Shown here piece after piece: positions 2,421 through 48,302 of a DNA stretch of 64,000 nt. The notes below the pieces were generated by a model, which was given only the letters and a program-made list of their open reading frames with translations, had not been told where the DNA came from and ran no database searches. Within the stretch, counting starts at the first letter, position 1. Every line of letters begins with the position of its first letter. Position numbers and translations under genes: made by a program. Origin of the DNA: an uncultured Alistipes sp. (GTDB lineage Bacteria > Bacteroidota > Bacteroidia > Bacteroidales > UBA932); NCBI GenBank assembly GCA_900544195.1, contig UQUJ01000001.1:45342-109341 (forward strand), written 5' to 3'.

Positions 2421-4430
2421 TCACTTGACCGTCTTAGGAGCCTGACCGGCCACCTTTGGCCAACCAGGGTTCTGGTAGATTACAGATGTCTCAAGGTCGG
2501 TCTTGTCGCCGGAGGCAGTCTGGCGGAACGCACTCTGCGGAAGCGGACTGAGATAGTGGGCAGGTGTGAAGTTGTAGCCTCCGAAGACTGAATTGTTCAC
2601 CTTGGAGATCTGGTAAGGCCTGATGTAAGGCCCGCTGACCACCTTGTCAGACATATTCCCCGTTCCTCCGTCCACATCGACAATCACAAGGTCTTCCCCG
2701 CTTTGGCTCAAAAGCTTGCCTTCGTAGGAAGAACCCCAGTAGAGCATTCCCTCAATCTGGTAATCCTTCACCTGGTCGAGAGCCCTCCAGCGCTTGAGGT
2801 CGGCCATGCGCATCCCTTCGCCTATCAGCTCGTTCCTGCGCTCGCGGCGGATGTTGTAGAGTGTGGCGTCCACCATCCTTCCCTGCGAGTACGCCCCGAA
2901 GTCTCCCATCGCCTCCTTTGCCACATCTGTGGCGGCGATGGTGACGTTGTAGTCAGGGTTGACCTTCGCCCTCGTCCTGAGCGCGCGCCAGTACCTGTCC
3001 GCCGTGGCGTCGATGTTTCCGTTCTTCTCGTAGCAGGCCTCGATGTAGTTCAGCAGGGCCTCAGCCCCCCTGAACACCACGCTGGCGGTGGTTCCCTTCT
3101 GATGCTGGTTCTCCATGTAACTGTTGTAGTGCTTTCCCTTCTTCAGGGCGAACCCGGTCACATTGCGGGTCTCGTTGTTCCCTTTGACAATCCACGTCGG
3201 ATCGAAGCGGTTGGCGGATCCGTCGGCGTTGTAGACATCGGCGTCCCCGTCCTTCTTTGTGAATATCCTGATTCTGGAATCCCTGCCCGTAAGGGTGGCC
3301 TTCACGCTCTCCTTCTCCCAGTCAGGGTTGTAGCCCGAGCCCGAAGCATAGACCGGAAGTCCGTTCTCCATCAGGAACGAGTTGACCAGACCACGTGTCC
3401 AGCCTGTGCCGCCTCCGTTGCGCATCAGCTGCATCTGGATGTTGTGCGTCACACCCTGTGCCTCGTTGTATTCCCTCCACATCAGCACTTCAGGGTAGTT
3501 CTCAAGGCTGTAGTCGCAGAACATCACGTAGTACGGATTCAGCGTCTTGAACGACACGTCCATCCCCTCTTCGGTGTCGGTGTTCTCCGTCAGTTTCCCG
3601 ACAATCTCTTCCCCGACAGCCTTGGCCGAGGCCATCGCCTCTGTCAGGAAATAACTGATTTCGGAGTCGATGTTCAGACCGCTGGCATCCTCGGTCTTGC
3701 CCGGCCAGCCCTGACCGCCAGGGACGAATGCGGTGCCTTTGTGGTGCTTGAGCCAGGTTCCTTCGTAAAGAGCCACTCGCGAGCGGAGCAGATGGGCCAC
3801 GGATTTGCCGACCCTTGTCTTACCCGCCGGAGAAGTCTCCAGGAGCATCTGTGCTGCCTTGTCCAGGTCGGACAGGATGAAACGCGCCACCTTGTGTCTC
3901 GGCTGCCTTTTGGACGCCTCCACCAGAACTTCCTCCTGATCAGGAAGGGCGGTCTCGACAATCGGACAGTCGCCTATGTTCTGAAGCATGTTGAAATAGG
4001 CGTAGGCGCGGATCAGGTAGATTTCCCCGATGTAATGCCGGATGTTGGCGGCGGAACCCTGGATCTCTCCCGCCTCGTGTTTAGGCAGCACCTGCTCCAG
4101 AAAATAGTTGCAGTGCCTTATCTGAGAGAAGTTCCACACTCCCGAGGTGGCCGACACCCTCCACTCTCCGGGAACCCAGAAAGAGGAGTAATCAACGGCG
4201 GCCTGGTTATCCGTCCCGTTGTCGCTGCCGAAGGTGCTTATTCCATAGGAACCAGGTCCGATGGAAGTGAATGCGTACAGGTTGATTGAATATGCCGCCA
4301 GATCCGCCTCTGCCTTGAAATAGGACGAAGGAGTCACGGAACTCTGGGGCTGCTTGTCCAGAAAATCATCGCACCCGGCGACACTGAAAAGAGCTGCCAG
4401 AGACATGAATATGTAGATAATCTTTTTCAT
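2421..4430 (-). CDS. susD: SusD/RagB-family nutrient-binding outer-membrane lipoprotein
   Basis: Lipoprotein signal (..SVAGCDDFLDKQP), 669 aa, TPR-like SusD N-terminus (YFLRAYAYFN-type segment), immediately downstream of a SusC gene. Confidence 0.9.
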   Translation of the reverse strand: MKKIIYIFMSLAALFSVAGCDDFLDKQPQSSVTPSSYFKAEADLAAYSINLYAFTSIGPGSYGISTFGSDNGTDNQAAVDYSSFWVPGEWRVSATSGVWNFSQIRHCNYFLEQVLPKHEAGEIQGSAANIRHYIGEIYLIRAYAYFNMLQNIGDCPIVETALPDQEEVLVEASKRQPRHKVARFILSDLDKAAQMLLETSPAGKTRVGKSVAHLLRSRVALYEGTWLKHHKGTAFVPGGQGWPGKTEDASGLNIDSEISYFLTEAMASAKAVGEEIVGKLTENTDTEEGMDVSFKTLNPYYVMFCDYSLENYPEVLMWREYNEAQGVTHNIQMQLMRNGGGTGWTRGLVNSFLMENGLPVYASGSGYNPDWEKESVKATLTGRDSRIRIFTKKDGDADVYNADGSANRFDPTWIVKGNNETRNVTGFALKKGKHYNSYMENQHQKGTTASVVFRGAEALLNYIEACYEKNGNIDATADRYWRALRTRAKVNPDYNVTIAATDVAKEAMGDFGAYSQGRMVDATLYNIRRERRNELIGEGMRMADLKRWRALDQVKDYQIEGMLYWGSSYEGKLLSQSGEDLVIVDVDGGTGNMSDKVVSGPYIRPYQISKVNNSVFGGYNFTPAHYLSPLPQSAFRQTASGDKTDLETSVIYQNPGWPKVAGQAPKTVK

Positions 4431-4443
4431 GATCTTAACTGAA

Positions 4444-7400
4444 TTAGAAAGTTATGTCAAGTCCGACAGAGAATGTCTTGGACAGAGGGTAGGTCTTGCC
4501 GAATCCCCAGCCTCCGATTCCGACAAGTTCAGGGTCGGCTGTTTCCGTGAACTTGGTGAGCGTGAACAGATTCTCCCCTGAAGCGAAGAAGCGTAGCCTT
4601 TCGACAAAGAACTTCCTTGTCAGGCTCTGAGGAAGGGTGTAGCCCAGCGTCAGGTTCTTCAGTCGCGCGTAGGCCGCGTTCTGAAGGTAGCGGGTCTGGG
4701 TGTTGTTGTTCCTGCCTCCTCCCCAGTTGGCCTTAGGGTAGTAGCTGTCAAGATTCTGCCCGAGAGGGTTTGAAGCGTCGGCGCGAAAATAGTCCAGATG
4801 CTGCTTCAGTCCGAGAGCCTGCCATTTGCCTATGCCCGAGGCTCCCCAGAACGGGGCCTCTCCGCCCGGCCAGTAGTCCCTCTTGAGAGTTCCCTGAAGG
4901 AATACCTTCAGATCCAAGCCCCTCCATTCGGCCGTGAGATTGAGGCCGAAATTGAAACGAGGTGTCGAATTACCGATTATCTTGAGGTCGCCCGGATCGC
5001 CGGCCGTACCCTGGCCCCTGTCCACAACCCCGTCTCTGTTGATGTCGGCGTACATGATGTCTCCAGCTGACCAGTTGCTCCCGAGACGGCTCTGGTCGGC
5101 CTTGGCAAGATGGGCGTTCATCTCCTGGTCGGTCTTGGCTATTCCGACCGTGGTGAATCCCCAGATGTCGCCAAGTCTCGCCCCCGGATAGTAGTTGTTC
5201 AGGTTCTTGGACTCATTAGGGTACTTGTCAATCACCACGATGTTGTCGCTCAAGGTGAGGACAATCCCGTAGTTGAAGTCTCTGATGTAGTCCCTCCATC
5301 CGATCTGAAGATCCCAGCCTTTGGAGGTCATGTCCAGATTGTTGACCTTAGGCACTCCTGTGCCGAGGATGTCCGGAAGTTCCGGAGCCGGACCCACCAT
5401 GTCATAGGTCTTGCGCTGGAAATAGCCGAAACTTCCTGTCAGGCGGTCGGAGAACAGCCCCCAGTCAAGCCCGACCTCCCAGGTACGGCTTTTTTCCCAA
5501 GTCAACAGAGAGGAGACAAGACCCGGCTCGCTGGAGATGTTCGGCTTCTGTCCGCCGACGAGCCACCCTCCAGCCTTGGCGCTGTAGCCTATGGTAGGAT
5601 AGAACGGGTACCAGTTGTCCGTGTTCTGGTTGCCGAGTTTTCCCCACGACGCCCTCAGTTTCAAGATGTTCACCGCATCCGAGTACGGTTCCATGAACGG
5701 TTCTCTGGCGATGTTCCAGCCCGCCGAGAAAGACGGGAACCAGTTCCACCTCTTTTCCTTCGTGAAGCGGGAACTGCCGTCGTAGCGCAGATTGGCCTCG
5801 AACAGGTAGCGTCCTTTGAAATCGTAGTTGAGCCTTCCGAAGAATCCGGCGGTTGACCAGCTATTGTAGGCCCCTCCGACCTTCGGGTCGGTGGAGGTCG
5901 TGTTGAGGGTAGGAAGGCCGGACAGAATGCCGTTCTGCTGGGCTGAGAAGTCTCTCTCGTTCAGCAGCTCGCTCTGGAATCCGGCCATCAGGGTGACATT
6001 GTGGCCTCCTGACGAGCGGGCATATTCAGCCCACACATTAGGATTGAAGTAGTTGTTTTTCTCGTTGTACTCATAGACTGACGAGTTGGCGTTGTTCGTG
6101 ACGTACGGGTTGCCGTCCACGTCGTAGCCGTAGGTGGTGAGCCAGTCCTTGTGGAAGTTGGAGTTGTTGATCCTGTAGTTCAGTTCCACATTGACAGTCA
6201 GGCCGTCAAGAGGTTTCACCCTCAGGGAAACCTGCTGGGCCAAGACATCGTTCTGCTCCTTGTGCTTTCCTCCGTCCTTCAGCTCGCTGATGAAGGATTC
6301 CGGCACCCAGTGTCCGTTCGGATCCTTGGTCGGGACAATCGGCCAGTACCGCATCACGTTGTGGTAGAAGACCTGGTCGTCAATCCACGAAGGAGACACA
6401 TAGTCTGTACGCCCGAAGCGTACCTGGTAGCCCAGTTCCGCCCAGGATGCCAGCGCGGTTGTAATCTTTCCCGAAACCGAATAGCGCTGTATGTTGTCGT
6501 CGCCGTGCCTGAGGGCTCCGTCACGGTCAAGCATGTAGGCGGAGAAGTAGTATCTGGTCTTCCCCGAGCCACCGCTCACGCTGAGGTTGTGCTCCTGCGA
6601 GAAACTGCTGCCGAAATGTTCCTTAAGCCAGTCCGTGTTTCCCACAGGCAGGATGTCGGTGACATCCCACACTTCCCACCTGTTGGATGCGTTGGCGAAC
6701 ATCTTAGGGCTTTTCGGATCACTCTGGGCGTTCTTGATCTTGTTCAGATGAGACTCCTGGAACCACCTTCCGCTTCCTGAATTGACACTCGCCTCGTTCA
6801 TGTACAGCGCCCAGGTGTAGGAGTCCATCATTTCGGGCATATTCAAAGGAGAGTTGAAGCGGAAGCTGTTGCTGTAGTTCACCGTGGCCCTGCCGTCAGC
6901 CCCGCTCTTGGTCGTGACGAGGATGACTCCGCCAGCCGCTCTCGAACCGTAGATGGATGAAGCGGAAGCGTCCTTGAGAACGGAGATGCTGGCCACGTCG
7001 TGTGGATTCAGGGTGTTGAGGTCGCCCTCGATTCCGTCAATGAGAACCAGCGGACGTACCGAAGATCCGGCTCCGATGGTGCCGGTGCCTCGGATGTTGA
7101 AGCTTTTTGGTGAGTTGAGCGCTCCTCCCAGACTTCCTGTGGAAAAGTTCATTCCCGGAACAGTCCCCTGAAGCGCGTCCACCACAGAGTTGACCGGCCT
7201 GGCCGAAATCTCCTTGGCGTCCACGGTGGAGACGGCGCCGGTCAGGTTCACTTTCTTCTGGGTTCCGAACGCCACGACCACAACCTCGTCAAGGTACTCA
7301 AGGTTGTCCTCCAGAACTATGTGCAGATCTCCGCCGGTCCAGGCCACCTCTTTGGTCGTGTAACCCTGGATGGAAACCCGGAGCACCGCTCCAGGCCCCA

Positions 7401-18177: not shown

Positions 18178-18482
18178 AACTATTGAATGTACTCATGCGT
18201 TCAAGGGTTTCTTATGTTGCACTTCCGTTCGTATGATGATGGGATGCTTATGAAAGGATGTAGCCTTGTCGAAAGAATCCTCTGTCTGTTGGTTCCGGTT
18301 ACAATGATATTGATAATAATTCTAATTTGCAAATATAATGTGCAATAATGCGAACATTTTGATTTACTGCTTGTTGCGCAAACGTTTTTGTTGGCTATCG
18401 CATAATTCAACCTGGTTAAAAAACCGCCTGACCGTCGGGCGGTCCGCTCTGGTGTGACACCTGATCCCTTGGACTTGGGCTT

Positions 18483-18526
18483 AAAAAAACTCGTGGTACC
18501 GGATTAAGTACCACGAGTTCTTTTAT
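18483..18526. terminator. Bidirectional rho-independent terminator, near-identical twin of 2336-2382
   Basis: Hairpin ACTCGTGGTACCGGATTAAGTACCACGAGT (18489-18518) flanked by an A-run and TTCTTTTATT, located 3' of the SusD at 18568. Confidence 0.75.
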
Positions 18527-18567
18527 TGTGTTGGCTGGCAAATTAGTTGTCTGCCACGCGGACTTCG

Positions 18568-24208: not shown

Positions 24209-26389
24209 ATGAGCATTGACAGATTTGATCTGGTGAAGGAATCCTTCGAGAAGAAGGCTGTTCCGGCTGAACGCCCTGAGGGCAAGACCTCCGACTATTA
24301 CGGAGAACTGGTCTTTGACCGTCCCAAGATGCACAAGTACTTGGACGTCAAGACTCTGAATGCGCTGCTTGACTGCATCGACAACGGCAAGTCCCTTGAC
24401 AGGGAGACCGCTGATGGAGTCGCAAAGGGTATGAAAGAGTGGGCTATGGAGCATCACGTGACCCACGTGACCCACTGGTTCCAGCCTCTGACAGAGGGCA
24501 CCGCCGAGAAGCATGATTCGCTGATCGACTATGACGGCAAAGGAGGAGTCATCGAGACATTCGACGGAAAATCTCTCGCGCAGCAGGAGCCTGACGCTTC
24601 TTCCTTCCCTAATGGAGGAATCCGCGCCACATTCGAGGCCAGAGGCTACACGGCCTGGGATCCGACTTCTCCGGTGTTCATCATGGATGACACCCTCTGC
24701 ATCCCGACCGTCTTCATCTCCTACACCGGTGAGGCCTTGGACTACAAAACCCCTCTCAAAAAGGCCCTCAAGGCCGTTTCTGATGCGGCCACTCCTATCT
24801 GCCGCCTCTTCGACAAGTCTGTCACTAAGGTATATTCCTACCTTGGATGGGAGCAGGAATATTTCCTTGTCGATGAATCCCTCTATGCCGCGAGGCCTGA
24901 CCTTATGATCACCGGCCGCACCCTGATGGGACACAGCTCATCCAAGAACCAACAGCTGGACGACCACTATTTCGGTGCCATTCCTTCAAGAGTCGCTGAG
25001 TTTATGCGTGATCTTGAGATTGCCGGTCACCGTCTTGGGATTCCGCTCAAGACCAGGCACAACGAGGTGGCTCCCAACCAGTTCGAGCTCGCTCCGATCT
25101 TCGGTGAGACCAACCTCGCCAACGACCAGAACCAGCTTGTGATGAACCTGATGAACAAGATCGCGCGCAAGCACGGTTTCGTGGTTCTGCTTCACGAAAA
25201 GCCTTTCGCAGGAGTGAACGGATCCGGCAAGCACAACAACTGGTCGCTCGGAACCGACACCGGCACAATGCTTCTGGCTCCGGGCAAGGATGCCAAGGGC
25301 AACCTCCAGTTCGTCACATTCTTCGTGAATGTGCTGGCTGCCGTTCAGAAGCACAACGCTTTGCTGAAGGCCTCCATAGCCACTGCCACCAACGCCCATC
25401 GTCTCGGCGCCAACGAGGCTCCGCCGGCAATCGTGTCCGCTTTCCTTGGCAGGACGATGACAGATGTGCTTCACAAACTGCTTGAGGTTCCGTCCGACAC
25501 TCCGATCGAGATCGCCGGGAAGAAGGGCAAAAGCGTTGGCCTTGTGGAGATTCCGGAGATATTCGTGGACAACACCGACCGCAACAGAACCTCTCCGTTC
25601 GCTTTCACGGGCAACCGCTTCGAGTTCCGCGCCGTGGGTTCGCTGGCCAATTGCGCCGGTGCGATGACCACACTGAACGCCGCTGTGGCTGAGCAACTTA
25701 TCTCGTTCAAGAAAAGCCTGGACAAGGAACTGGCAGCAGGCAAGGCTATGAATGTGGCCATCATGGACACCTTGAAGCCGATCATCGCGTCCATAATAGA
25801 TGTGGTCTGCTTCGACGGCAACGGCTACACCGATGAGTGGAAGGCCGAGGCGAAGAGGCGCGGGCTGGATGTCGAGACCAGCGTCCCGGAGATGATTAAG
25901 GTCTTCACGGCTCCTGAATCTGTGAATATGTTCAAGGAGACGGGGGTATATTCAGAAAAAGAGCTTCAGGCCCGCAATGAGGTGAAGTGGGAGACCTACA
26001 GCAAGATGATCCAGATCGAGTCGCGCGTGATGGCGAGAATGGCGATCAACCACATTATCCCGGCTGCCCTTGACTACAAGTCCAAGTTGCTGAAGGAGGT
26101 GGCGTTGAGCAAGAATGTCTTCGGCGGCACGGACGAGTGCAAGGAGGAGATCTACCTCATAAAGAGCATCTCGAAATACGTTGACCAGATCCGCGAGAAG
26201 GCGACCGCTATGGTCGAGGCGCGCAAGAAGGCGAATGTCCTTGAGGATGAATATGCCAAAGCAGTGGCCTACCACGAGATAGCCGAGAGCTTCTCCGCCC
26301 TCCGCCGTCCGATCGACAAGCTTGAGGAGATCGTGGACAACCGCACCTGGCCTCTCCCGAAGTACCGCGAGCTGCTGTTCATCAGCTAG
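24209..26389 (+). CDS. glnA: Glutamine synthetase type III (GSIII)
   Basis: 726 aa, the size typical of Bacteroides-type GSIII; conserved GS catalytic blocks (..NGSGKHNNWS.., ..EFR..GS..N..). Confidence 0.85.
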   Translation: MSIDRFDLVKESFEKKAVPAERPEGKTSDYYGELVFDRPKMHKYLDVKTLNALLDCIDNGKSLDRETADGVAKGMKEWAMEHHVTHVTHWFQPLTEGTAEKHDSLIDYDGKGGVIETFDGKSLAQQEPDASSFPNGGIRATFEARGYTAWDPTSPVFIMDDTLCIPTVFISYTGEALDYKTPLKKALKAVSDAATPICRLFDKSVTKVYSYLGWEQEYFLVDESLYAARPDLMITGRTLMGHSSSKNQQLDDHYFGAIPSRVAEFMRDLEIAGHRLGIPLKTRHNEVAPNQFELAPIFGETNLANDQNQLVMNLMNKIARKHGFVVLLHEKPFAGVNGSGKHNNWSLGTDTGTMLLAPGKDAKGNLQFVTFFVNVLAAVQKHNALLKASIATATNAHRLGANEAPPAIVSAFLGRTMTDVLHKLLEVPSDTPIEIAGKKGKSVGLVEIPEIFVDNTDRNRTSPFAFTGNRFEFRAVGSLANCAGAMTTLNAAVAEQLISFKKSLDKELAAGKAMNVAIMDTLKPIIASIIDVVCFDGNGYTDEWKAEAKRRGLDVETSVPEMIKVFTAPESVNMFKETGVYSEKELQARNEVKWETYSKMIQIESRVMARMAINHIIPAALDYKSKLLKEVALSKNVFGGTDECKEEIYLIKSISKYVDQIREKATAMVEARKKANVLEDEYAKAVAYHEIAESFSALRRPIDKLEEIVDNRTWPLPKYRELLFIS

Positions 26390-26418
26390 TTCCCGCATCG
26401 GTCACTGAGCAGCCTTTC

Positions 26419-26440
26419 GGTCACTGAGCTTGTCGAAGTG
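26419..26440. repeat. 22-nt dispersed motif GGTCRCTGARCYTGTYGAAGYG (copy 1 of 4)
   Basis: Same motif at 35751-35772, 44981-45002 and 48196-48217, all intergenic. Confidence 0.7.
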
Positions 26441-26469
26441 ACTATGTAATCATCAAAGCACTTTTACAA

Positions 26470-26539
26470 AGCGGCAAAGGCGTTCAAAAATAGAAAATTC
26501 CAGAATTTTGCACGTTACCAAAATTCTGGAATTTTTATT
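26470..26539. repeat. Long perfect hairpin (30-bp stem) with loop GCACGTTACC, 3' of glnA
   Basis: Stem GCGTTCAAAAATAGAAAATTCCAGAATTTT pairs with AAAATTCTGGAATTTTTATTTTCTGAACGC. It has the same architecture and loop as 45086-45158, but the stem sequence differs. Confidence 0.75.
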
Positions 26540-26613
26540 TTCTGAACGCGGTGTTTCTTTTTGAGTGGATTCCTTAAAACTCTATTATCTATGACTTGTG
26601 TCTGTGTCAGCCT

Positions 26614-26847
26614 CTATGCCTTGTGCCAGCTGGCGGAAGATTCTTGGATGATCTCATCAACCAGAAAGGCGTCACTCATATTCTGCAGACCGTTTCTTAA
26701 GTCGTTGAGATTGCAGTAGGTCTTTGAATTATAGAAAACAGCCATCGCCTTGTCTTCGGAAATGTCCAGCCTTTTGGCTAAAAGGGAGATGACTCTGGCA
26801 TATTTCATTTGGAGCAGAGTCTCATTTATTAAAGGATTTCCGTTCAT
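26614..26847 (-). CDS. Small protein, DUF3791-like (third gene of overlapping triad)
   Basis: 77 aa; start overlaps the stop of the upstream gene by 4 nt; paralogous in size and helical character to 27338-27565. Confidence 0.55.
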   Translation of the reverse strand: MNGNPLINETLLQMKYARVISLLAKRLDISEDKAMAVFYNSKTYCNLNDLRNGLQNMSDAFLVDEIIQESSASWHKA

Positions 26848-27341
26848 TGTTCTTCCTCCTTTATTTCACGCGCCTCAACAAATGTCAAGTGATTATCGAT
26901 AATGTTCTGGTTAAGAACGCAGATCTGATTGTTCGGCTTTTCATAAATCAATCTTTGAAGAGCCTCGTTTTCGGAAATCAAGCCAGAGGAGTATAACTCG
27001 ATTGTGTTGAATATCCTGTCGTTTGCTATTCCGCCTTCCACAATGTCAAACTGTCTCCAGTCGGAGCCTCCTTTCCTGTTGGAAATCACAAAATTCAGCC
27101 ATTCGGCGTTGTATTCATCGAAATGGAGGTATTGGTAGTCTCCGTTTGCAATTGCGGATGAATCCAGTTCATAGATATTGAGATATTTCTGTTTGCCTTG
27201 ATTCAAAGGTCTTGAGGCCCAGGATATTGCTTGAGCCTCCAAAGTTGTCAGATAGAATCCTTTGCCGAAGTCCAGATGATTCCGTCCGATATTGGCGAGC
27301 GGCTTGTCGACTATTGATGTGGAGCCGTGAAATACTTTCAT
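26844..27341 (-). CDS. DUF3990-like protein (possible H-Y-E type ADP-ribosyltransferase-fold domain)
   Basis: 165 aa; ordered motifs VFHGS ... GKGFYLTT ... QFDIVEGG resemble the H-G-S / aromatic-Y / catalytic-E pattern of ART folds; flanked by two small paralogous genes with 4-nt overlaps. Confidence 0.5.
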   Translation of the reverse strand: MKVFHGSTSIVDKPLANIGRNHLDFGKGFYLTTLEAQAISWASRPLNQGKQKYLNIYELDSSAIANGDYQYLHFDEYNAEWLNFVISNRKGGSDWRQFDIVEGGIANDRIFNTIELYSSGLISENEALQRLIYEKPNNQICVLNQNIIDNHLTFVEAREIKEEEQ

Positions 27342-27565
27342 AGTTTTATGCTGAAGTTATGGCTGGAGATATAAGTCTGGATCTCATCCAAGATGTAATC
27401 CTTGCTTTGTGTATGCAGAGAATCGTAACTTGGATAAAGGAATCCGGAGATTGCTCCTATGTCATTCAGTTTATTGAATATTACAGAACCTGACACTCCA
27501 AGGCGATCCGCAAGATTCTCAATGCAGAACACCACAAATTCTGTTGCCCGTTCTTTTTGGCTCAT
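27338..27565 (-). CDS. Small protein, DUF3791-like (first gene of overlapping triad)
   Basis: 75 aa; ATGA overlap with the downstream gene. Confidence 0.55.
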   Translation of the reverse strand: MSQKERATEFVVFCIENLADRLGVSGSVIFNKLNDIGAISGFLYPSYDSLHTQSKDYILDEIQTYISSHNFSIKL

Positions 27566-28353: not shown

Positions 28354-29964
28354 CTACAGCAGCGGAGCGAACAACCTCATGATACTTTCGATGATGTGGG
28401 AGTACCATGGGCGGGCACTCCATTCCTCGATGGTCAGCTCGTGGCATTGACGGAGGTCGTACATGAATATTCCTTTGTTCATCAGGGCGGTCTGCTCGTC
28501 GTAGATGTAGGAGTTGACCTCGTAGTTGATGGCGAAGCTGCGGAAGTCCAGATTGGCGGAACCTATGCTGGAGAGGTAGTCGTCGCTGACGAATGTCTTG
28601 GCATGGATGAACTCTCCTTTGCGCAGGAATATTCTTACGCCGGCTTGCAGGGCCTCTTCGTAATAGGCTCTGTTGGCCGGGCGCATGAGGATGTTGTCGG
28701 CCACTTCCGGGAGCATCAGACGGACATCGACTCCACAGAGGGCGGCTGTCTTGAGGGCGTCCATGACAGGCTCGGTCGGCACGAAGTACGGGGTTTGGAG
28801 ATAGATGTACTTTTTGGCGTGCTGCAAGGCCCATTCGTAGCTCAGCTGGAGGATCGGGAGCGGCAGGTCCGGTTCGTCCGGGACTATCTGGATAAGTTTG
28901 TTCCTGAGCGTCGGGTGGGTGGCATGGAAATCGATCTCTTGTTCTGTTGTCAAATCGTTTTCTCTGGTCGCTGAGCTTATCTTTCCAGTCGCTGGACTTC
29001 CCTTTCCGGTCTCTGGGCTTGTCGAAGCGACATTGTTCAGGATTAGAGACCCTTGTGAGGTCACTTCGGCAGGCTCAGTGGCCGGGGCAACTTTCTTCGC
29101 CATCGGGTAGAACTCAGTCATCGCCTTGTCAATCGTCCCGCCACCCGTCAGCCAGGAGTCCAAAAACGTGTACTGGAGCACGGCCACGGCGTCGCCCGTG
29201 ATGCGCATGTGCGTGTCCCTCCACAGACGGAAATAGTGGTCGTTTATATTCATGCCTCCAGTGTAGCCTATCTTTCCGTCAATCACGACTATCTTCCTGT
29301 GGTTCCGGTAATTGAGTTTCGTGGCCAGATCCAGGACGTGCATTCTTGGGTTGGTGAACTTCACAACCTCGACCCCGGCTTTCCTCATGTCATTGTAGTA
29401 GGCCGCCGCGATCGGGAAATTCGCGATGTTCTCGTACAGGAATCTGACTTTGACCCCTTCCCGGGCCTTCTGCATAAGAAGCCGTTTGATCGCCTTGCTG
29501 CCCTTGTCGTTGCCGAAATGGAAATATTCAATGTGGATTGACTCCTTGGCCGCCAGTATGTCCTCGCGCAGCAGGTCGAACTTCCGCTGCCCACTGGTGA
29601 TGACCTCGATGTCATTGCCGGATGTGACAGAAGGGTAGTGTTCCGCGCCCAAAAGTCTGGCAAGCGGGCGGAATTCCTCACGGATTTTCTCCTCGTTGTC
29701 GTGCCCGAAAAGGATTCTGTTCAGCTCAGGAGTCGTGCCGGCCTCGAAGATGTCCCTGTACCTCTGGTGCCGGCGGTAGAAGATCCAGTGATGTCGGTAG
29801 TTGATACCGAACATCAGGTAGAGAGCCAGTCCGACGACCGGAAGCACGGCTATGATCAGCAGCCATGCGAATTTCCTTCCCGAATCCCCCTTGTCAACCA
29901 GAATGACCGTGAAGACACTGAGGATCAAGAGAACATAAAGCCCTGTGAGAAACCACTGCAACAT
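28354..29964 (-). CDS. cls: Cardiolipin synthase (phospholipase D superfamily, two HKD motifs)
   Basis: Two N-terminal TM helices; HKD motif 1 (HRKIVVIDGKIGYTGGMNI) and motif 2 (HAKTFVSDDYLSSIGSANLD); a long low-complexity linker lies between the PLD domains. Confidence 0.85.
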   Translation of the reverse strand: MLQWFLTGLYVLLILSVFTVILVDKGDSGRKFAWLLIIAVLPVVGLALYLMFGINYRHHWIFYRRHQRYRDIFEAGTTPELNRILFGHDNEEKIREEFRPLARLLGAEHYPSVTSGNDIEVITSGQRKFDLLREDILAAKESIHIEYFHFGNDKGSKAIKRLLMQKAREGVKVRFLYENIANFPIAAAYYNDMRKAGVEVVKFTNPRMHVLDLATKLNYRNHRKIVVIDGKIGYTGGMNINDHYFRLWRDTHMRITGDAVAVLQYTFLDSWLTGGGTIDKAMTEFYPMAKKVAPATEPAEVTSQGSLILNNVASTSPETGKGSPATGKISSATRENDLTTEQEIDFHATHPTLRNKLIQIVPDEPDLPLPILQLSYEWALQHAKKYIYLQTPYFVPTEPVMDALKTAALCGVDVRLMLPEVADNILMRPANRAYYEEALQAGVRIFLRKGEFIHAKTFVSDDYLSSIGSANLDFRSFAINYEVNSYIYDEQTALMNKGIFMYDLRQCHELTIEEWSARPWYSHIIESIMRLFAPLL

Positions 29965-35535: not shown

Positions 35536-35789
35536 AGTTTGTTACTTTTTGTGGCGGGTGTCCGGGAATATGCCGACGCGCTTGCCGACATATTCTTTAT
35601 CGCCGCATGTTCAATGCCGGCAATATAGGTATAGCAAACGGAAAAAAAGTTAAGAAACATAAATGTCTCCTAACTTTTTTCTGTTTTTTATGGAAATTTC
35701 TGTTTTTTATAGGCTATCCCTGCCACTTCGGCAAACTCACCGCATGGTGTGGTCGCTGAACCTGTTGAAGCGCCTGCCGAAGCGCCTGC

Positions 35790-37767: not shown

Positions 37768-39174
37768 ATGGCACACGTAGTTATTATGCCCAAACAAGGG
37801 CAATCCGTAGAAAGTTGCATTGTCACTGAATTCAAGAAAAAGGTGGGAGACAAAGTCGCCGTCGGCGATGTCCTTTTCAGCTATGAGACCGACAAGGCAT
37901 CCTTTGACGAGGACGCCAAGGTCGAAGGCACTGTCCTTGCCTGCTTCTTCAATGATAATGACGAGATCCCTTGCCTGACCAACGTCATGGTCATCGGCGA
38001 ACCGGGGGAATCGTTCTCTGAATATGCTCCTTCGGGGGCCGGCGCATCTGCCGCTTCGGGAGCGGAACCGACATCGCCTGCCACGGAGCCGGCAAATGCG
38101 GTCGCAGAGCCAGTGGCTCGACAAGGCTCACCAGCCATCGAAGTGACCGCGGCAGCGACACCGGGCGCTTCGGCAAGCTCGGCGACCGGAACCGTTGCCG
38201 CCAACGCCCCCGTCTCCCCAAGAGCCCGCAAATTGGCCGCCGAAAAAGGCGTGGACACCGCCCAGGTCGCCGGCACAGGCCCTCACGGCCGCATAATCGA
38301 ACGTGACATCATAGCCGCACAGGGCGCTCCGAAATCCGGACTCGCCAAGGCTATGATGGCCGACGGAGGTCTCCAGGCTCCTGCCGCAGGCTCCGGAATC
38401 GGCGGAATGGTCAAGGGCTCCGACCTCAAGGTCTGGAAACCTACCCACACCGGGAACCTTGCCGGAGAAGGCGAGGAGTTCAAGGTCGAGAAGATGTCCA
38501 ACATGCGCAAGCTCATCGCCAAGTCGATGTACAACTCCCTCCAGAACACGGCCCAGCTCACCCATATGCTCGGTGCTGACGCACGCCGTGTCCAGGCTCT
38601 CCGCAAGAAGGCGAAGAAGGCCCTTGAGGAAGGAAAGATCGACGTGAACATCACGATCAATGATTTCGTCTGCTACTCCGTCATCAAGGCTCTGAAGAAA
38701 TTCCCTAAGGTCAACTCGCACTGCCTCGGTGACGCTATGAGGATATTCAATGTCGTCAATCTTGGTTGCGCCGTTGACACGGAGCGCGGACTGATGGTGC
38801 CTTGCGTGAAGCACGCGGAGGACCTGAATATCATCGGCTTGAGCAAGGCTCTGAAGAAGGTCGCTGAGGACTGCAAGAAGGGCTCGATCAATCCCGACCT
38901 GCTTTCCGCCGAGGGTGCCTCATTCACGGTCTCCAATCTCGGAGGTTTCGGAGTCGAGTGGTTCACACCTGTCATCAACGTGCCTCAGAGCGCGATCCTC
39001 GGAGTCGGCACGATCGTCCCTCGTCCGAAGGATCTGGGCGCCGGAGTCTATGCGTTCGTCCCTTATCTCGGTCTTTCCCTGACCTACGACCACAGGGCGC
39101 TTGACGGCGGAGAGGCAACCCGCTTCCTGAAGCAGGTGGCTGTTGAGATAGAGAATCTTGAAGTTGAATTCTAA
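37768..39174 (+). CDS. 2-oxoacid dehydrogenase complex E2 (dihydrolipoamide acyltransferase)
   Basis: Lipoyl domain with the ETDKA lipoyl-lysine motif, peripheral subunit-binding domain (PRARKLAAEKGVD...GTGPHGRI), catalytic motif DHRALDG. Confidence 0.88.
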   Translation: MAHVVIMPKQGQSVESCIVTEFKKKVGDKVAVGDVLFSYETDKASFDEDAKVEGTVLACFFNDNDEIPCLTNVMVIGEPGESFSEYAPSGAGASAASGAEPTSPATEPANAVAEPVARQGSPAIEVTAAATPGASASSATGTVAANAPVSPRARKLAAEKGVDTAQVAGTGPHGRIIERDIIAAQGAPKSGLAKAMMADGGLQAPAAGSGIGGMVKGSDLKVWKPTHTGNLAGEGEEFKVEKMSNMRKLIAKSMYNSLQNTAQLTHMLGADARRVQALRKKAKKALEEGKIDVNITINDFVCYSVIKALKKFPKVNSHCLGDAMRIFNVVNLGCAVDTERGLMVPCVKHAEDLNIIGLSKALKKVAEDCKKGSINPDLLSAEGASFTVSNLGGFGVEWFTPVINVPQSAILGVGTIVPRPKDLGAGVYAFVPYLGLSLTYDHRALDGGEATRFLKQVAVEIENLEVEF

Positions 39175-43574: not shown

Positions 43575-44855
43575 ATGTATACTAAAGCCGTTAGATTATA
43601 TGGTAAGGAAGACCTTCGTCTCGAGGAGTTCGAGCTCCCCGAGATGAAGGATGATGAAATTCTCGCGAAGGTTGTCAGCGACAGCCTCTGCATGTCTTCC
43701 TACAAGTCTTCACATCAGGCCTCCGACCACAAGAGGGTACCGGATGACATCGCCGAGAATCCGACGATCATCGGCCACGAGTTCGCCGGAGAGATCATAG
43801 AGGTCGGCGCCAAGTGGAAGGATCAGTTCAAGCCGGGTGACAAGTTCTCCATCCAGCCTGCCCTCAACTACGAGGACGGCCCTGTCGGAGCCCTTTCCGC
43901 CCCTGGCTATTCCTACAGATTCATCGGTGGCGACGCCACCTACATCATCATCCCTTCCGAGGTGATGGAGATGGGGTGTCTGCTCCCTTACAAGGGTCCG
44001 GGCTTCTATCCAGCTTCCCTTAGCGAGCCTCTGTCCTGCGTCATCGGCGCGATGCACGCTTGCTATCACACCCATCCTGGTTCATACGTGCACCAAATGG
44101 AAATCAAGGACGGTGGCAAGATGGCTCTTCTGGCCGGTGTCGGCCCGATGGGACTTGCGATGATCAACTATGTGCTCCGCCGTGAGGACAGAAGGCCGTC
44201 CCTTTTCGTTGTGACGGACATTGATCAGACCCGTCTTGACCGTGCCGCGATGCTCTACACCAAGGAGTTCGCCGCTTCCCGTGGCATCGATCTCCGCTAT
44301 GTGAACACCGGCACTGTCGAGAATCCTGTCGATCTGTTGCGTGAGATTTCCGGCGGAACCGGCTACGATGAGGTCATCGTGATGGCTCCGGTTCCCGCGG
44401 TTGTCGAGCAGGGAGACGACATCCTCGGACAGGATGGCTGCCTGAATTTCTTCTCCGGCCCTGGCCGCTCCGATTTCAAGGCTCCGTTCAACTTCTACAA
44501 TGTCCACTACGCTTCCACCCACGTGGTAGGCACCAGCGGCGGCAACACCGAGGACATGAAAGAAGCCCTCAGGATGATGGGCGAAGGCCTCGACCCCGCC
44601 GGTCTTGTGACCCACATCGGCGGCCTGAACGTCGTCCCTGAGACCACACTGAACCTCCCGTCGATCAAAGGCGGCAAGAAGCTCATCTACACCCACGTGG
44701 AGATGCCTCTGACCGCCATCACCGATTTCGGGGAGAAAGGCAAGACCAACCCTGTCTATGCCGAGCTCGACCGCCTCTGCAAAGCCCATAACGGCCTCTG
44801 GAATCTGGAAGCCGAGGAATACCTCCTCGCCCACGCCACCGAGCTGAGCAAGTAG
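43575..44855 (+). CDS. Zinc-dependent alcohol dehydrogenase (MDR superfamily), long-form
   Basis: 426 aa; catalytic-Zn ligand region (C..SS.K...HEFAGEI) and Rossmann GxGxxG (GVGPMG). Confidence 0.75.
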   Translation: MYTKAVRLYGKEDLRLEEFELPEMKDDEILAKVVSDSLCMSSYKSSHQASDHKRVPDDIAENPTIIGHEFAGEIIEVGAKWKDQFKPGDKFSIQPALNYEDGPVGALSAPGYSYRFIGGDATYIIIPSEVMEMGCLLPYKGPGFYPASLSEPLSCVIGAMHACYHTHPGSYVHQMEIKDGGKMALLAGVGPMGLAMINYVLRREDRRPSLFVVTDIDQTRLDRAAMLYTKEFAASRGIDLRYVNTGTVENPVDLLREISGGTGYDEVIVMAPVPAVVEQGDDILGQDGCLNFFSGPGRSDFKAPFNFYNVHYASTHVVGTSGGNTEDMKEALRMMGEGLDPAGLVTHIGGLNVVPETTLNLPSIKGGKKLIYTHVEMPLTAITDFGEKGKTNPVYAELDRLCKAHNGLWNLEAEEYLLAHATELSK

Positions 44856-44890
44856 TGTGCTCATCATAGGGTGTGCCCCACAAAAGAATT

Positions 44891-44946
44891 TCCCCTTCCC
44901 GAGTTTTTCACGTTACAAAAATTACGGGAAGGGGATATTCTTTTCT
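44891..44946 (+). terminator. Terminator-like hairpin (11-bp stem TCCCCTTCCCG / CGGGAAGGGGA, loop containing TTCACGTTAC) followed by T-rich run
   Basis: Located 36 bp after the ADH stop; the loop shares CACGTTAC with the two long hairpins. Confidence 0.5.
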
Positions 44947-44980
44947 GGCTGCTGTTATGAACGGTATTGTGGTTTGATCT

Positions 44981-45002
44981 GGTCGCTGAGCTTGTCGAAG
45001 CG
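44981..45002. repeat. 22-nt dispersed motif GGTCGCTGAGCTTGTCGAAGCG (copy 3 of 4)
   Basis: See 26419-26440. Confidence 0.7.
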
Positions 45003-45085
45003 CCCGCCGAACCGTCCGGGACCGTTTGTATTGTTTCATGTCGCTATTATCGTGTGGTAATAAGCTACAAGCGAACGAGTCTGAT

Positions 45086-45158
45086 GACAGCGGAAAAAAG
45101 GCAAAGTGAAAATTTTGCGCGTTACCAAAATTTTCACTTTGTCTTTTTTTCCGCTGTC
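45086..45158. repeat. Long hairpin (31-bp stem) with loop GCGCGTTACC; structural twin of 26470-26539
   Basis: GACAGCGGAAAAAAGGCAAAGTGAAAATTTT pairs with AAAATTTTCACTTTGTCTTTTTTTCCGCTGTC. Confidence 0.75.
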
Positions 45159-45970
45159 AAGTGGCTTTACTACCGCTTCATCTCGGAATGGTAGATCTTT
45201 TGATTGTTTATTTGATCTATAACTAATTGGTTGGTAGTTAATTACTTTGTAATTTGCGATTTTGTAAAATATACTTTATGAATTTGTAAAACACGATTTA
45301 TAAATGACAATATTCAAAAGGCCAGTTCTCTGCTTCATCACTTGCTTCTGGCTGCGGTGTTCGGCGACACTTTAAGCCTTTTTCGTTGCCGATAAGTCAA
45401 CTTATACCAGTAATAATCTATAAATCCGAGTCAACCTAAATCAGGAAAGTACAGAAGGGTGTCAAATGGTGCCCTTAAGCGACATTTCAAGCCCTTTTTG
45501 TCGCCAAAGGAATCCTCAAACTCAATGAAAGAGACTCTGACAAATTCACCGAACTCAAAAATATCTGGTAAAACTTGCACCATGATATTCATCTGACCAT
45601 TGCCGAGACAATCTTGCTGAAGGGACTGCGTTAAACTACTGATAAATAAAGTCTTACCCGTCACTGGTTCTGTATGAGCGAGTGGTGGGCAAGTTATTAA
45701 TAGTGTGCGACATGCGCATCCATCTTCAGCAGTAATCAACCATAGGGAAGAGTCTTGTTTGCTGAAAGTCAACTCATTACATTTGCTGGTCTGCCAAAGA
45801 GCCAAATACTACGTTTTGTTCGTGAACGCTATTGGTGACAATCACTTAGACGGACTTGGCGATCTGGAAGTTCTGTGGCCAAGGTTCTGGATCAGTTATT
45901 GGAAAGTCATTTGTCCGGGGAAACACATGTATCGCCGGACAAACCGGCAGCGAAATGAGTTTTGTCCGGT

Positions 45971-46098
45971 GAGGGTGAGACTGTCTTAAAAGTAAAAGAA
46001 CCCCCAGTGAGGATTGAGAATTCGTTGTCGCCCCTGTATAGGGGTACAGACTTTTCTACTCTCGCCGAGACTTTTAAGACAGTCTGGGGAGGGGATTT
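45971..46098. repeat. MITE-like repeat family A, copy 3 (inverted orientation)
   Basis: Reverse complement of 517-643 with a few substitutions. Confidence 0.8.
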
Positions 46099-46104
46099 AC
46101 CGGA

Positions 46105-46565
46105 CAAAATGATACTGAATGAGAGAACTTAGGTTGGCCGGGGGTGGCGTGTTTGAGGCACGTGAGGAATATTGTTATTTTACAAATCGCTTTCAGAGTA
46201 ATGTGCCACAGAACAGTGTAGAATGACGATAAGCCTGAAAAAGTCGTGCGATCGGGGGTGAGATATTCATGGCATAGTTGCCTGTGGACGGTTCTGTGGA
46301 CGATCGGCCTGAAGGTGTTTTGCAAAATGAGAGGGATAACTTAGGTTGGCCTGAAGGTGGCGTGTCTGAGGCACGTGAGGAATTCTGTTATTTTACAAAT
46401 CGCTTTCATGGTAATGTGCCATAGAACAGTGTAGAATGACGATAAGCCTGAAAAAGTCGTGCGATCGGGGGTGGGATATTCATGACAAAGTGGCCTGTGG
46501 ACGGTTCTGTGGACGATCGGCCTGAAGGTGTTTTGCAAAATGTAAGGGATAACTCAGGGTTGGCA
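46105..46565. repeat. 212-bp tandem repeat, 2 full copies plus a third-copy stub (~96% identity)
   Basis: Unit AACTTAGGTTGGCC...GGCACGTGAGGAAT...TTTGCAAAATG. Unit starts are at 46127, 46339 and a third-copy stub begins at 46551. The ORFs 46074-46325 and 46341-46538 are merely translations of the two copies. Confidence 0.85.
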
Positions 46566-46675
46566 ACGGCTATATTGGGAGCAGGCCACGGTGTAGAGTC
46601 TCTGCTGACACTCTGAATGAAAAACGACTGACCGGAAACGGTCAGCCGTTGTAATATTCATAGAAAAAGAATTCG

Positions 46676-48079: not shown

Positions 48080-48302
48080 TCTTTTAGCGTTTTAAAAACG
48101 GGGGACACAAAGATACAAAAAACGGCATTCTTAAGGAAGAAATTGTTATTTTTGTAAGATATGAAATGAGCGGTCGCGGAGCTGTTGCTTCGCCCGGTCG
48201 CTGAGCTTGTCGAAGCGGCAGTTGGTTCGACAGGCTCACCAACCATCGAAGCGGTCCCTGAACCTGTCGAAGGAACCGGATAATGAAAGAAATTAATTAT
48301 TA

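Follow-up and report, generated by a model that had tools for sequence, protein, structure and literature searches.

A clade-specific family of long hairpins with a near-invariant tip at gene 3′ ends in uncultured gut Bacteroidales

Introduction

Three long hairpins in the window (the whole 64-kb stretch of DNA analysed here) belong to a hairpin family that is real, selected and previously undescribed, and that is restricted to a single clade of uncultured Bacteroidales from the gut. The family unit is a non-coding palindrome, typically ~64-76 bp in size (about 70 bp), with a tip that is nearly invariant on a stem that covaries. We put it at somewhat better than an even chance (roughly 0.55) that these units are REP- or MITE-like DNA elements that have been co-opted as bidirectional terminators, with the tip serving as the recognition site of the factor that propagates them.

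Gene boundaries, the stability of mRNAs and the plasticity of genomes are all shaped by small palindromic repeats. Such repeats have been studied in depth in Proteobacteria, but hardly at all in Bacteroidota, which dominate the Gram-negative bacteria of the gut.

Three hairpins of the window

The longest three short-range inverted repeats found by an inverted-repeat scan of the window are hairpins 1, 2 and 3 (Table 1). All three also stand out on folding against shuffled sequence, with z = -6.5 to -9.5 on either strand, and both approaches confirm that hairpins are present at the positions originally claimed for them. Several structural details of the original prediction have to be revised, however. 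The stems, which had been described as perfect, are 84-96% complementary (87% in hairpin 1, 84% in hairpin 3 and 96% in hairpin 2), and contain mismatches, wobbles and 1-nt bulges. The loop had been given as 10 nt long; it is in fact 8 nt, and its sequence is CACGTTAC except in hairpin 2, which has CGCGTTAC. An inner stem end thought to be common, AAAATTTT, is present in hairpin 2 only, with GAATTTT in hairpin 1 and GTTTTT in hairpin 3 at the same place. Finally, hairpin 3 had been regarded as a third, shorter structure, but it equals the other two in length once a bulge is permitted.

The core that is common to all three hairpins is TTTTG-C[A/G]CGTTAC-CAAAA, and the loop-closing pair is G-C in hairpins 1 and 2 and T-A in hairpin 3. 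When up to three mismatches (<=3) are allowed, the core TTTTGCRCGTTACCAAAA has three matches in the window against 0.02 expected, and three matches were reached in 0 of 100 shuffles. A chance resemblance, or an artefact of assembly, has nothing in its favour beyond the low copy number (three) in the window; given the 0.02 matches expected in shuffles, and the recurrence of the elements in independent assemblies from many samples and studies, it can be dismissed for practical purposes.

Hairpin 1 begins 91 nt past the stop codon of glnA, which encodes a type III glutamine synthetase, and is flanked by glnA and a small convergent ORF. It contains an internal A-tract and T-tract, gains additional outer pairs across 26468-26560, folds at -37.1 kcal/mol (z -7.1), and is unchanged in seven further contigs of the same species. 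Hairpin 3 (-41.6 kcal/mol, z -7.1) begins 23 nt past the stop codon of a gene of the zinc-ADH family, and hairpin 2 (-51.1 kcal/mol, z -9.5) lies 230 nt past the same ADH stop. Together, hairpins 3 and 2 open a 1.8-kb stretch without a recognisable gene; its small ORFs have no Pfam match, and the stretch has no Rfam match. Proteins identical to those of the upstream genes are encoded on human-gut metagenome contigs, Hadza samples among them. A scan of the window with the covariance model of the family (see below) identified hairpins 1-3 as its sole family members, with scores of 76.8 bits for hairpin 1 (E 7e-16), 69.6 bits for hairpin 2 and 57 bits for hairpin 3. The next-best matches are ordinary terminators composed of A-tract, stem and T-tract.

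Table 1. Positions of the hairpins, short repeats and neighbouring features in the window
Feature	Position	Strand	Remarks
Ordinary bidirectional terminator	18474-18533		A-tract/short GC stem/T-tract; conserved tip absent
glnA	24209-26389		type III glutamine synthetase; upstream of hairpin 1
Short repeat, partial and full copy	26401-26443	+	between glnA and hairpin 1
Hairpin 1	26480-26549	+	left arm 26480-26510, loop CACGTTAC 26511-26518, right arm 26519-26549
Conserved apical module of hairpin 1	26506-26523	+	TTTTG-CACGTTAC-CAAAA
DUF3990/DUF3791 gene pair and two small ORFs	26844-27565	-	just downstream of hairpin 1
Phospholipase-D/cardiolipin-synthase-like gene	28354-29964	-	two-domain; contains an inverted short-repeat pair (29009-29082)
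Short repeat	29009-29029	+
Short repeat	29062-29082	-
Ordinary bidirectional terminator	35630-35693		A-tract/short GC stem/T-tract; conserved tip absent
Short repeat	35752-35772
Short repeat	38166-38186	-
Zinc-ADH-family gene	43575-44855		upstream of hairpins 3 and 2
Stretch without recognisable gene	44856-46675		1.8 kb; opened by hairpins 3 and 2
Hairpin 3	44878-44948	+	arms 44878-44908/44918-44948; loop CACGTTAC 44909-44916, T-A closing pair
Short repeat	44981-45004	+	between hairpins 3 and 2
Hairpin 2	45085-45159	+	arms 45094-45117/45126-45149, extended by folding; loop CGCGTTAC 45118-45125
Tandem duplication, non-coding	46126-46564		213-bp unit, 2.1 copies, 92% identical
Short repeat, three copies	48197-48274

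Some further features of the window may be mentioned here. The two small ORFs that accompany the DUF3990/DUF3791 gene pair have no assigned function, and the pair itself is kept in every contig of the same species. In a related species (locus L054) the stretch from glnA to the phospholipase-D-like gene is rearranged. The tandemly duplicated unit of 213 bp occurs in other strains, too. The ordinary bidirectional terminators listed in Table 1 are devoid of the conserved tip, and the clade therefore uses conventional terminators as well.

Architecture, covariation and the invariant tip

From the outside inwards, a family unit is composed of a clamp, a tract of A5-7, a stem of ~10-16 bp and the tip, which are followed by the mirror image with T5-6. 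The clamp is GC-rich, 4-8 bp long and self-complementary, and its sequence varies from copy to copy. In the middle stem the sequence is partly free and partly specific for individual subfamilies. The tip is near-invariant: it comprises a 7-bp stem, AATTTTG/CAAAATT, and the 8-nt loop CACGTTAC, and its consensus across the family is RAATTTTG-CACGTTAC-CAAAATTY.

Subfamily A (GAAAAAAGGCAAAT...) has a conserved GG-against-T asymmetry and includes hairpin 2 (GACAGCGG-AAAAAAGGCAAA...). Hairpin 3, with its G/C-rich ATTTCCCCTTCCCG-type stem, falls into subfamily B (ATTTCCCCTTGCCG...), which is distinguished by a 1-nt bulge, and copies related to it are present at loci L060, L126, L051 and L146. Subfamily C (GCCTCTAACCTG...) has a 3x3 internal loop. 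Subfamily A copies at different loci resemble each other from the A-tract to the T-tract (~56 bp), but not in the clamp. The description of the three stems as unrelated therefore holds only in that their sequences differ; the layout is common to all of them, and hairpins 2 and 3 belong to subfamilies that are known from other genomes.

To quantify the pairing, 52 distinct copies were placed in a loop-anchored, gap-free alignment (A2), from which the covariance model was also built. Across the 30-bp helix as specified, standard pairs occupy 81% of cells, compared with 60% after shuffling, and the covariation score is 0.51, compared with 0.17 for shuffled alignments and 0.13-0.28 when the register is slid. 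Double changes occur at 26 of the 30 pairs. RNAalifold independently arrives at a 22-bp helix with 18 covarying pairs. Compensatory double substitutions thus exceed both the shuffled and the slid controls, as befits a structured element, and most stem positions outside the tip carry three to five pair types. At least 52 hairpins with compensatory stem changes have now been found. The original prediction of a selected structural element, in which structure and loop are kept and stem sequence is not, is well supported by this number of instances and their strong covariation.

The loop behaves very differently from the stem. A covariance-model search of 354 kb of family loci (48 loci, ~55 copies) found a sole loop variant, CACGGAGGAT. 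This variant, at positions 5472-5553 of locus L128, has a loop of 10 nt on a typical subfamily-A stem and is arranged tail to tail with a canonical copy. Because matches of the model on the reverse strand still score 28-56 bits, variant loops are detectable by this search, and the loop is therefore truly constrained. An unconstrained loop would drift at least as fast as the stem, and a purely structural one fastest of all. The combination of an asymmetric, invariant loop with covarying stems therefore argues that the tip is read by its sequence, and we infer a sequence-specific reader.

Distribution of the family

Scanning one genome per species with the pattern TTTTNCRCGTTACNAAAA produced matches in at least 116 stretches, and these matches are bimodal. 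About half of those listed form long hairpins in which the match lies at the centre of 20-37 paired positions. The remaining listed matches have no stem past the pattern itself and come from unrelated taxa, and hence are chance matches. Among the matches listed are at least 52 distinct hairpins with the same tip, at ~45 loci, and their carriers are 20 species-level assemblies of related Bacteroidales MAGs. The labels given by depositors include Bacteroidales, Bacteroidaceae, Muribaculaceae and 'Alistipes sp. CAG:435 / CAG:514', as well as two archaeal/Firmicutes names. Orthologous proteins are mostly 94-98% identical between carriers (~86% in two pairs), which indicates that the carriers form one genus-like clade and that the odd labels reflect mis-binning. 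In both L043 ('Methanomethylophilaceae archaeon') and L107 ('Bulleidia sp.'), the hairpin family is accompanied by genes for MetK and a peptidase whose products match their counterparts in the Bacteroidales MAGs at 94% identity; L043 and L107 are almost certainly mis-binned Bacteroidales contigs in public MAGs.

Outside this clade the glnA locus looks different. Of 80 glnA-orthologous loci in metagenomes, only the one from the same species (98% identity) has a family member. The 79 others, with GlnA identities of 61-88%, have none within 2.5 kb; they have ordinary terminators or other neighbour genes instead. A phage element was considered and rejected, as four matches in viral contigs represent a single locus, at which the 3′ end of the host gene hisS lies beside a prophage integrase.

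The family does not correspond to a known RNA family either. The window has no Rfam match at gathering thresholds, and a permissive E-value brings up generic long-hairpin matches only, mostly miRNA precursors, that lie far under threshold. In a literature search the core sequence was found in no paper, and nothing relevant was found in the literature on Bacteroides terminators and Prevotella repeats.

Location at gene ends and resemblance to terminators

The gene context of 54 copies was determined from self-trained ORF calls; 46 of them were resolved and 8 unresolved. Convergent genes flank 29 copies, a further 11 lie in tandem context in sense and 6 in tandem context in antisense (the antisense cases were inspected by eye on an earlier ORF call), and none is located between divergent genes. 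Every one of the 46 resolved copies is faced by at least one gene 3′ end, and a stop codon lies within 60 nt (<=60 nt) of about two thirds of the 54. A transcription attenuator, which had been among the original candidates, is therefore unlikely.

A pattern scan classifies hairpins 1 and 2 as terminator-like on both strands. Around the inner stem the family consensus is AAAAAA...TTTTT(C), and the T-tract of hairpin 3 (TTTTCT) is weaker. Judged by their sequence, the long hairpins look like bidirectional intrinsic terminators in shape, since they combine a stem-loop and a T-tract with a mirrored A-tract at sites downstream of stop codons. At loci L090 and L137 an ordinary terminator precedes the copy, and hairpin 3 likewise precedes hairpin 2, so that termination is not the role of every copy.

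These resemblances raise the question of whether the units are simply ordinary intrinsic terminators, with a common tip that results from recent descent or from a local mutational process and is recognised by nothing. Anatomy and location would fit, and the outer part of the covariance model also matches ordinary terminators in the window. We nevertheless regard this explanation as very improbable. The loop and 7 bp are near-invariant, against three to five pair types at most other stem positions, and loop variants (1 in ~55 copies) are not as common as stem variants. Moreover, identical tips are found on unalignable stems at equivalent sites, the other terminators of the window are without the tip, and identical units behind unrelated genes amount to dispersal.

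Other readings of the location were also rejected. Matches to a sigma-70-type promoter are weak (9 of 12 only) and overlap the hairpins, and no Bacteroides-type TAnnTTTG box at proper spacing was seen by eye. The clamps could have been former terminator stems, but the flanks outside them are not T-rich.

Strand symmetry and orientation

Whether the units act as RNA or as DNA may be reflected in asymmetries between their strands. Folding energy provides no advantage for the loop-sense strand (36 copies better, 44 worse) or for the strand transcribed by the nearest gene (24 versus 26), and wobbles are not enriched on the sense strand (33 G.T versus 27 A.C). A strand-specific RNA signal was therefore rejected, as these measures favour neither the loop-sense nor the transcribed strand. 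On sequence grounds, the symmetric stems agree with a palindrome that either is preserved as DNA or functions in both directions.

The orientation of the loop is less symmetric. Relative to the nearest gene end, 36 copies are in sense and 15 in antisense, and the short repeat described below, where it lies upstream of a long hairpin, is co-oriented with it in 17 cases and opposite in one. Both biases hint at an RNA-level or transcription-linked component, and the moderate sense bias makes an RNA-level reader possible.

An RNA-level cis element could have produced such biases. The units would then be 3′-UTR tags with a loop, CACGUUAC, that is bound by a clade-specific RNA-binding protein or RNase; they would act in stabilisation, in processing (for instance by RNase III on the ~30-bp stem) or in factor-assisted termination, and their spread would be secondary. 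A single-stranded loop that does not vary, carried by a stem that covaries, is what one classically expects of an RNA hairpin to which a protein binds. The confinement of copies to gene 3′ ends, often <=20 nt from the stop codon, points the same way as the two orientation biases, and in four of five tail-to-tail pairs each hairpin is sense to its own gene. We consider this explanation rather unlikely all the same. About 30% of copies (~30%) are antisense to the sole gene that is able to transcribe them, including six clean tandem cases, and wobbles are unenriched on the sense or transcribed strand. The clamp past the U-tract is still complementary, yet a terminated RNA would miss its 3′ half. 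Finally, some copies come after an ordinary terminator, and hairpin 2 has been lost in one strain.

The symmetry of the stems on both strands would also suit a site in double-stranded DNA or a cruciform, read by a host protein such as a nucleoid protein, gyrase or recombinase and serving to organise the chromosome or to mark gene boundaries, by analogy with the binding of gyrase and IHF at REP/BIME. The AT-rich centre would favour extrusion, and the 7-bp inverted arms around an 8-bp asymmetric spacer recall the core sites of recombinases. However, a duplex-bound dimer needs neither an invariant asymmetric spacer nor 30 bp of sequence-free complementarity, and no associated gene was found in ~1 Mb. 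Loop orientation leans with GC skew weakly and non-significantly (34 versus 20 raw, 20 versus 13 corrected), which also speaks against such a site; overall it appears improbable. For the same reason, and because oppositely oriented pairs occur within 200 bp, an orientation tied to replication was rejected.

Dispersal and turnover

The same unit is found at non-orthologous loci and is variably present or absent at orthologous ones, which identifies the family as a dispersed repeat. At locus L150, which contains an ADH orthologue with 95% amino-acid identity, hairpin 3 is absent, and hairpin 2 is present at the orthologous position with 6-7 compensated differences in the inner stem. A near-identical hairpin-2-type unit, clamp included, lies at locus L089 behind a gene other than that of L150 and the window. 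On the 3′ side of the peptidase gene dcp, three species differ from each other: there is a single copy in one, a pair of copies with three short repeats in another and an inverted copy in the last. Locus L054 and the window are collinear through glnA, with 86.6% nucleotide identity, and in the corresponding position L054 has a hairpin whose tip is identical but whose stem cannot be aligned.

Within the species of the window the hairpins are identical with one exception: in strain L240, which encodes an ADH protein identical to that of the window, most of hairpin 2 has been deleted between TTTGT direct repeats. A comparison of L240 ~3886-4106 with window positions 44961-45260 reveals that ~100 bp were deleted: the outer part of the right arm was left, whereas its inner part has gone together with the loop and the whole left arm. 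This deletion is an example of palindrome decay by microhomology.

Traces of a transposition machinery were also sought. When flanks were aligned by stem ends, no target-site duplication and no foot tag were seen, and the termini are not conserved. Six-frame translations of the window and the family loci, covering only ~1 Mb, contain no HUH-plus-Y motif. In the same ~1 Mb, no transposase or HUH gene was found beside any copy and no recurrent neighbour gene in the family loci, which is weak evidence against such a machinery.

We favour a dispersed DNA element co-opted as a bidirectional terminator, and this could work in the following way. In transcription from either side, the inner hairpin and the U-tract would act as an intrinsic terminator or 3′-end stabiliser, and this action would allow copies to be tolerated directly behind stop codons and in many cases to become fixed there. 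The tip would be conserved because a sequence-specific factor reads the single-stranded tip of the hairpin. The likeliest reader would be a protein that propagates the element, acting on a single-stranded DNA hairpin in the manner of the HUH/Y1 transposases of the IS200/IS605-RAYT type.

A second, short hairpin repeat

The clade also has a specific short repeat, GGTCRC-TGAGCYTGTCGAA-GYGACC, whose 6-bp stem covaries (A-T to G-C swaps) and whose 13-nt loop is conserved. The window contains seven copies, against 0 expected, and a search of 364 kb of family loci gave 70, which are distributed over 23 loci and often form partial tandem copies or inverted pairs. For 28 of the 54 long hairpins, there is a short repeat no more than 120 nt away. 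A fixed composite of short repeat and long hairpin was considered and rejected, as the linkers between them are non-homologous and range from ~15 to 86 nt.

One inverted pair of short repeats lies in frame within the phospholipase-D/cardiolipin-synthase-like gene (Table 1) and encodes part of a low-complexity linker (...APATEPAEVTSQGSLILNNVASTSPETGKGSP...). The orthologue at locus L054 (86% identity) has an inverted short-repeat pair too. This arrangement resembles the intragenic in-frame insertions that are known for REPs and for Rickettsia RPEs, and with such features the short repeat (GGTCRCTGAGCYTGTCGAAGYGACC) is more REP-like than the long hairpins are.

Comparison with known repeats and hairpins

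The long hairpins have much in common with REP/BIME sequences. Both are high-copy extragenic imperfect palindromes that are concentrated at gene 3′ ends, specific to a clade and turning over, and in both the stems are kept paired by compensatory changes. Roles as terminators or mRNA stabilisers have been credited to them, and spread is presumed to rest on a protein that recognises a small conserved hairpin. In contrast, REPs are 20-40 nt in size and have a GTAG/CGTC foot tag, whereas the long hairpins are ~70 bp with a variable foot, without such a tag, and with a conserved tip, and no RAYT was found in the ~1 Mb covered. RAYTs of subclass 2.6 from Bacteroidetes reportedly have 'atypical secondary structures' on their flanks (PMC6006769), which may offer a lead. 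REPINs (PMC3116915, PMC3337134) are likewise long hairpin-forming non-autonomous repeats, of a similar size to the long hairpins, that persist within a lineage. The conservation polarity is reversed, however: REPINs have conserved REPs at the base of the hairpin and a variable central spacer, while the ends of the long hairpins vary and the tip is conserved.

Correia elements of Neisseria (NEMIS/CREE), RUP, BOX, ERIC and Rickettsia RPE are dispersed inverted repeats that form RNA hairpins at gene ends, a description that also fits the long hairpins. Hairpins of the Correia type and of small MITEs can serve as terminators or RNase III substrates. These elements have conserved terminal inverted repeats (TIRs), target-site duplications and conservation over their full length. 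By contrast, the long hairpins have variable termini, their outer clamps differ by copy and no flanking direct repeats are seen, so that they do not resemble MITEs of DDE transposons in this respect.

Bidirectional Rho-independent terminators share with the long hairpins the order of A-tract, stem-loop and T-tract and an enrichment between convergent genes. The ordinary ones have no conserved loop and no pairing past the U-tract, whereas the long hairpins have both. Pairs of DUS/USS in Neisseria and Haemophilus are similar in that a conserved short word is embedded in many terminators. There, the word forms the stem and single copies exist elsewhere; in the long hairpins, the word forms the loop and apical stem and, among the matches listed, occurs within the clade in hairpins only.

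A parallel to the conserved tip is provided by hairpins that are read by HUH enzymes. The origin hairpins of CRESS-DNA viruses present a loop nonanucleotide, NANTATTAC, on variable stems, and are nicked by the HUH protein Rep. Their loop ends in ATTAC, and the left-end cleavage site of IS608 is TTAC; the loop of the long hairpins ends in GTTAC, a similarity that may serve as a lead. Like the origin hairpins of CRESS viruses and the subterminal hairpins of IS200/IS605, the long hairpins have an invariant loop on a stem of free sequence, which is the logic of hairpins read by HUH proteins or of protein-binding RNA hairpins. The CRESS and IS200/IS605 hairpins differ in being single sites with short GC-rich stems and an adjacent Rep or TnpA gene, whereas the long hairpins are present in many chromosomal copies, beside which no gene of this kind was seen in the ~1 Mb covered.

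Implications

In the long hairpins the usual pattern of conservation is reversed, with a fixed tip and a free foot, and this points to a reader of the loop sequence. Going one step further, we tentatively suggest that the invariant tip (7 bp plus CACGUUAC/CACGTTAC) may be the address at which a so far unrecognised system of gut Bacteroidales reads hairpins, although the odds are against so broad a claim. If such a system exists, the short repeat, with its conserved loop, its covarying stem and the orientation it shares with the long hairpins, would be another site for this kind of system. The system itself could be a mobilisation of the REP/RAYT-like type, with its recognition determinant in the apical loop and not in the foot. 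Alternatively, it could be a clade-wide 3′-UTR tag with a dedicated RNA-binding protein or nuclease. To our knowledge, Bacteroidota are without Hfq and ProQ, and we know of little characterisation of the RNA-binding proteins of these organisms.

In practice, the 22-nt tip serves to mark one uncultured clade specifically, and the long-hairpin units are candidate compact bidirectional terminators for the engineering of Bacteroidales. Identification of the reader would provide either a new system of single-strand DNA mobilisation or a new post-transcriptional tag.
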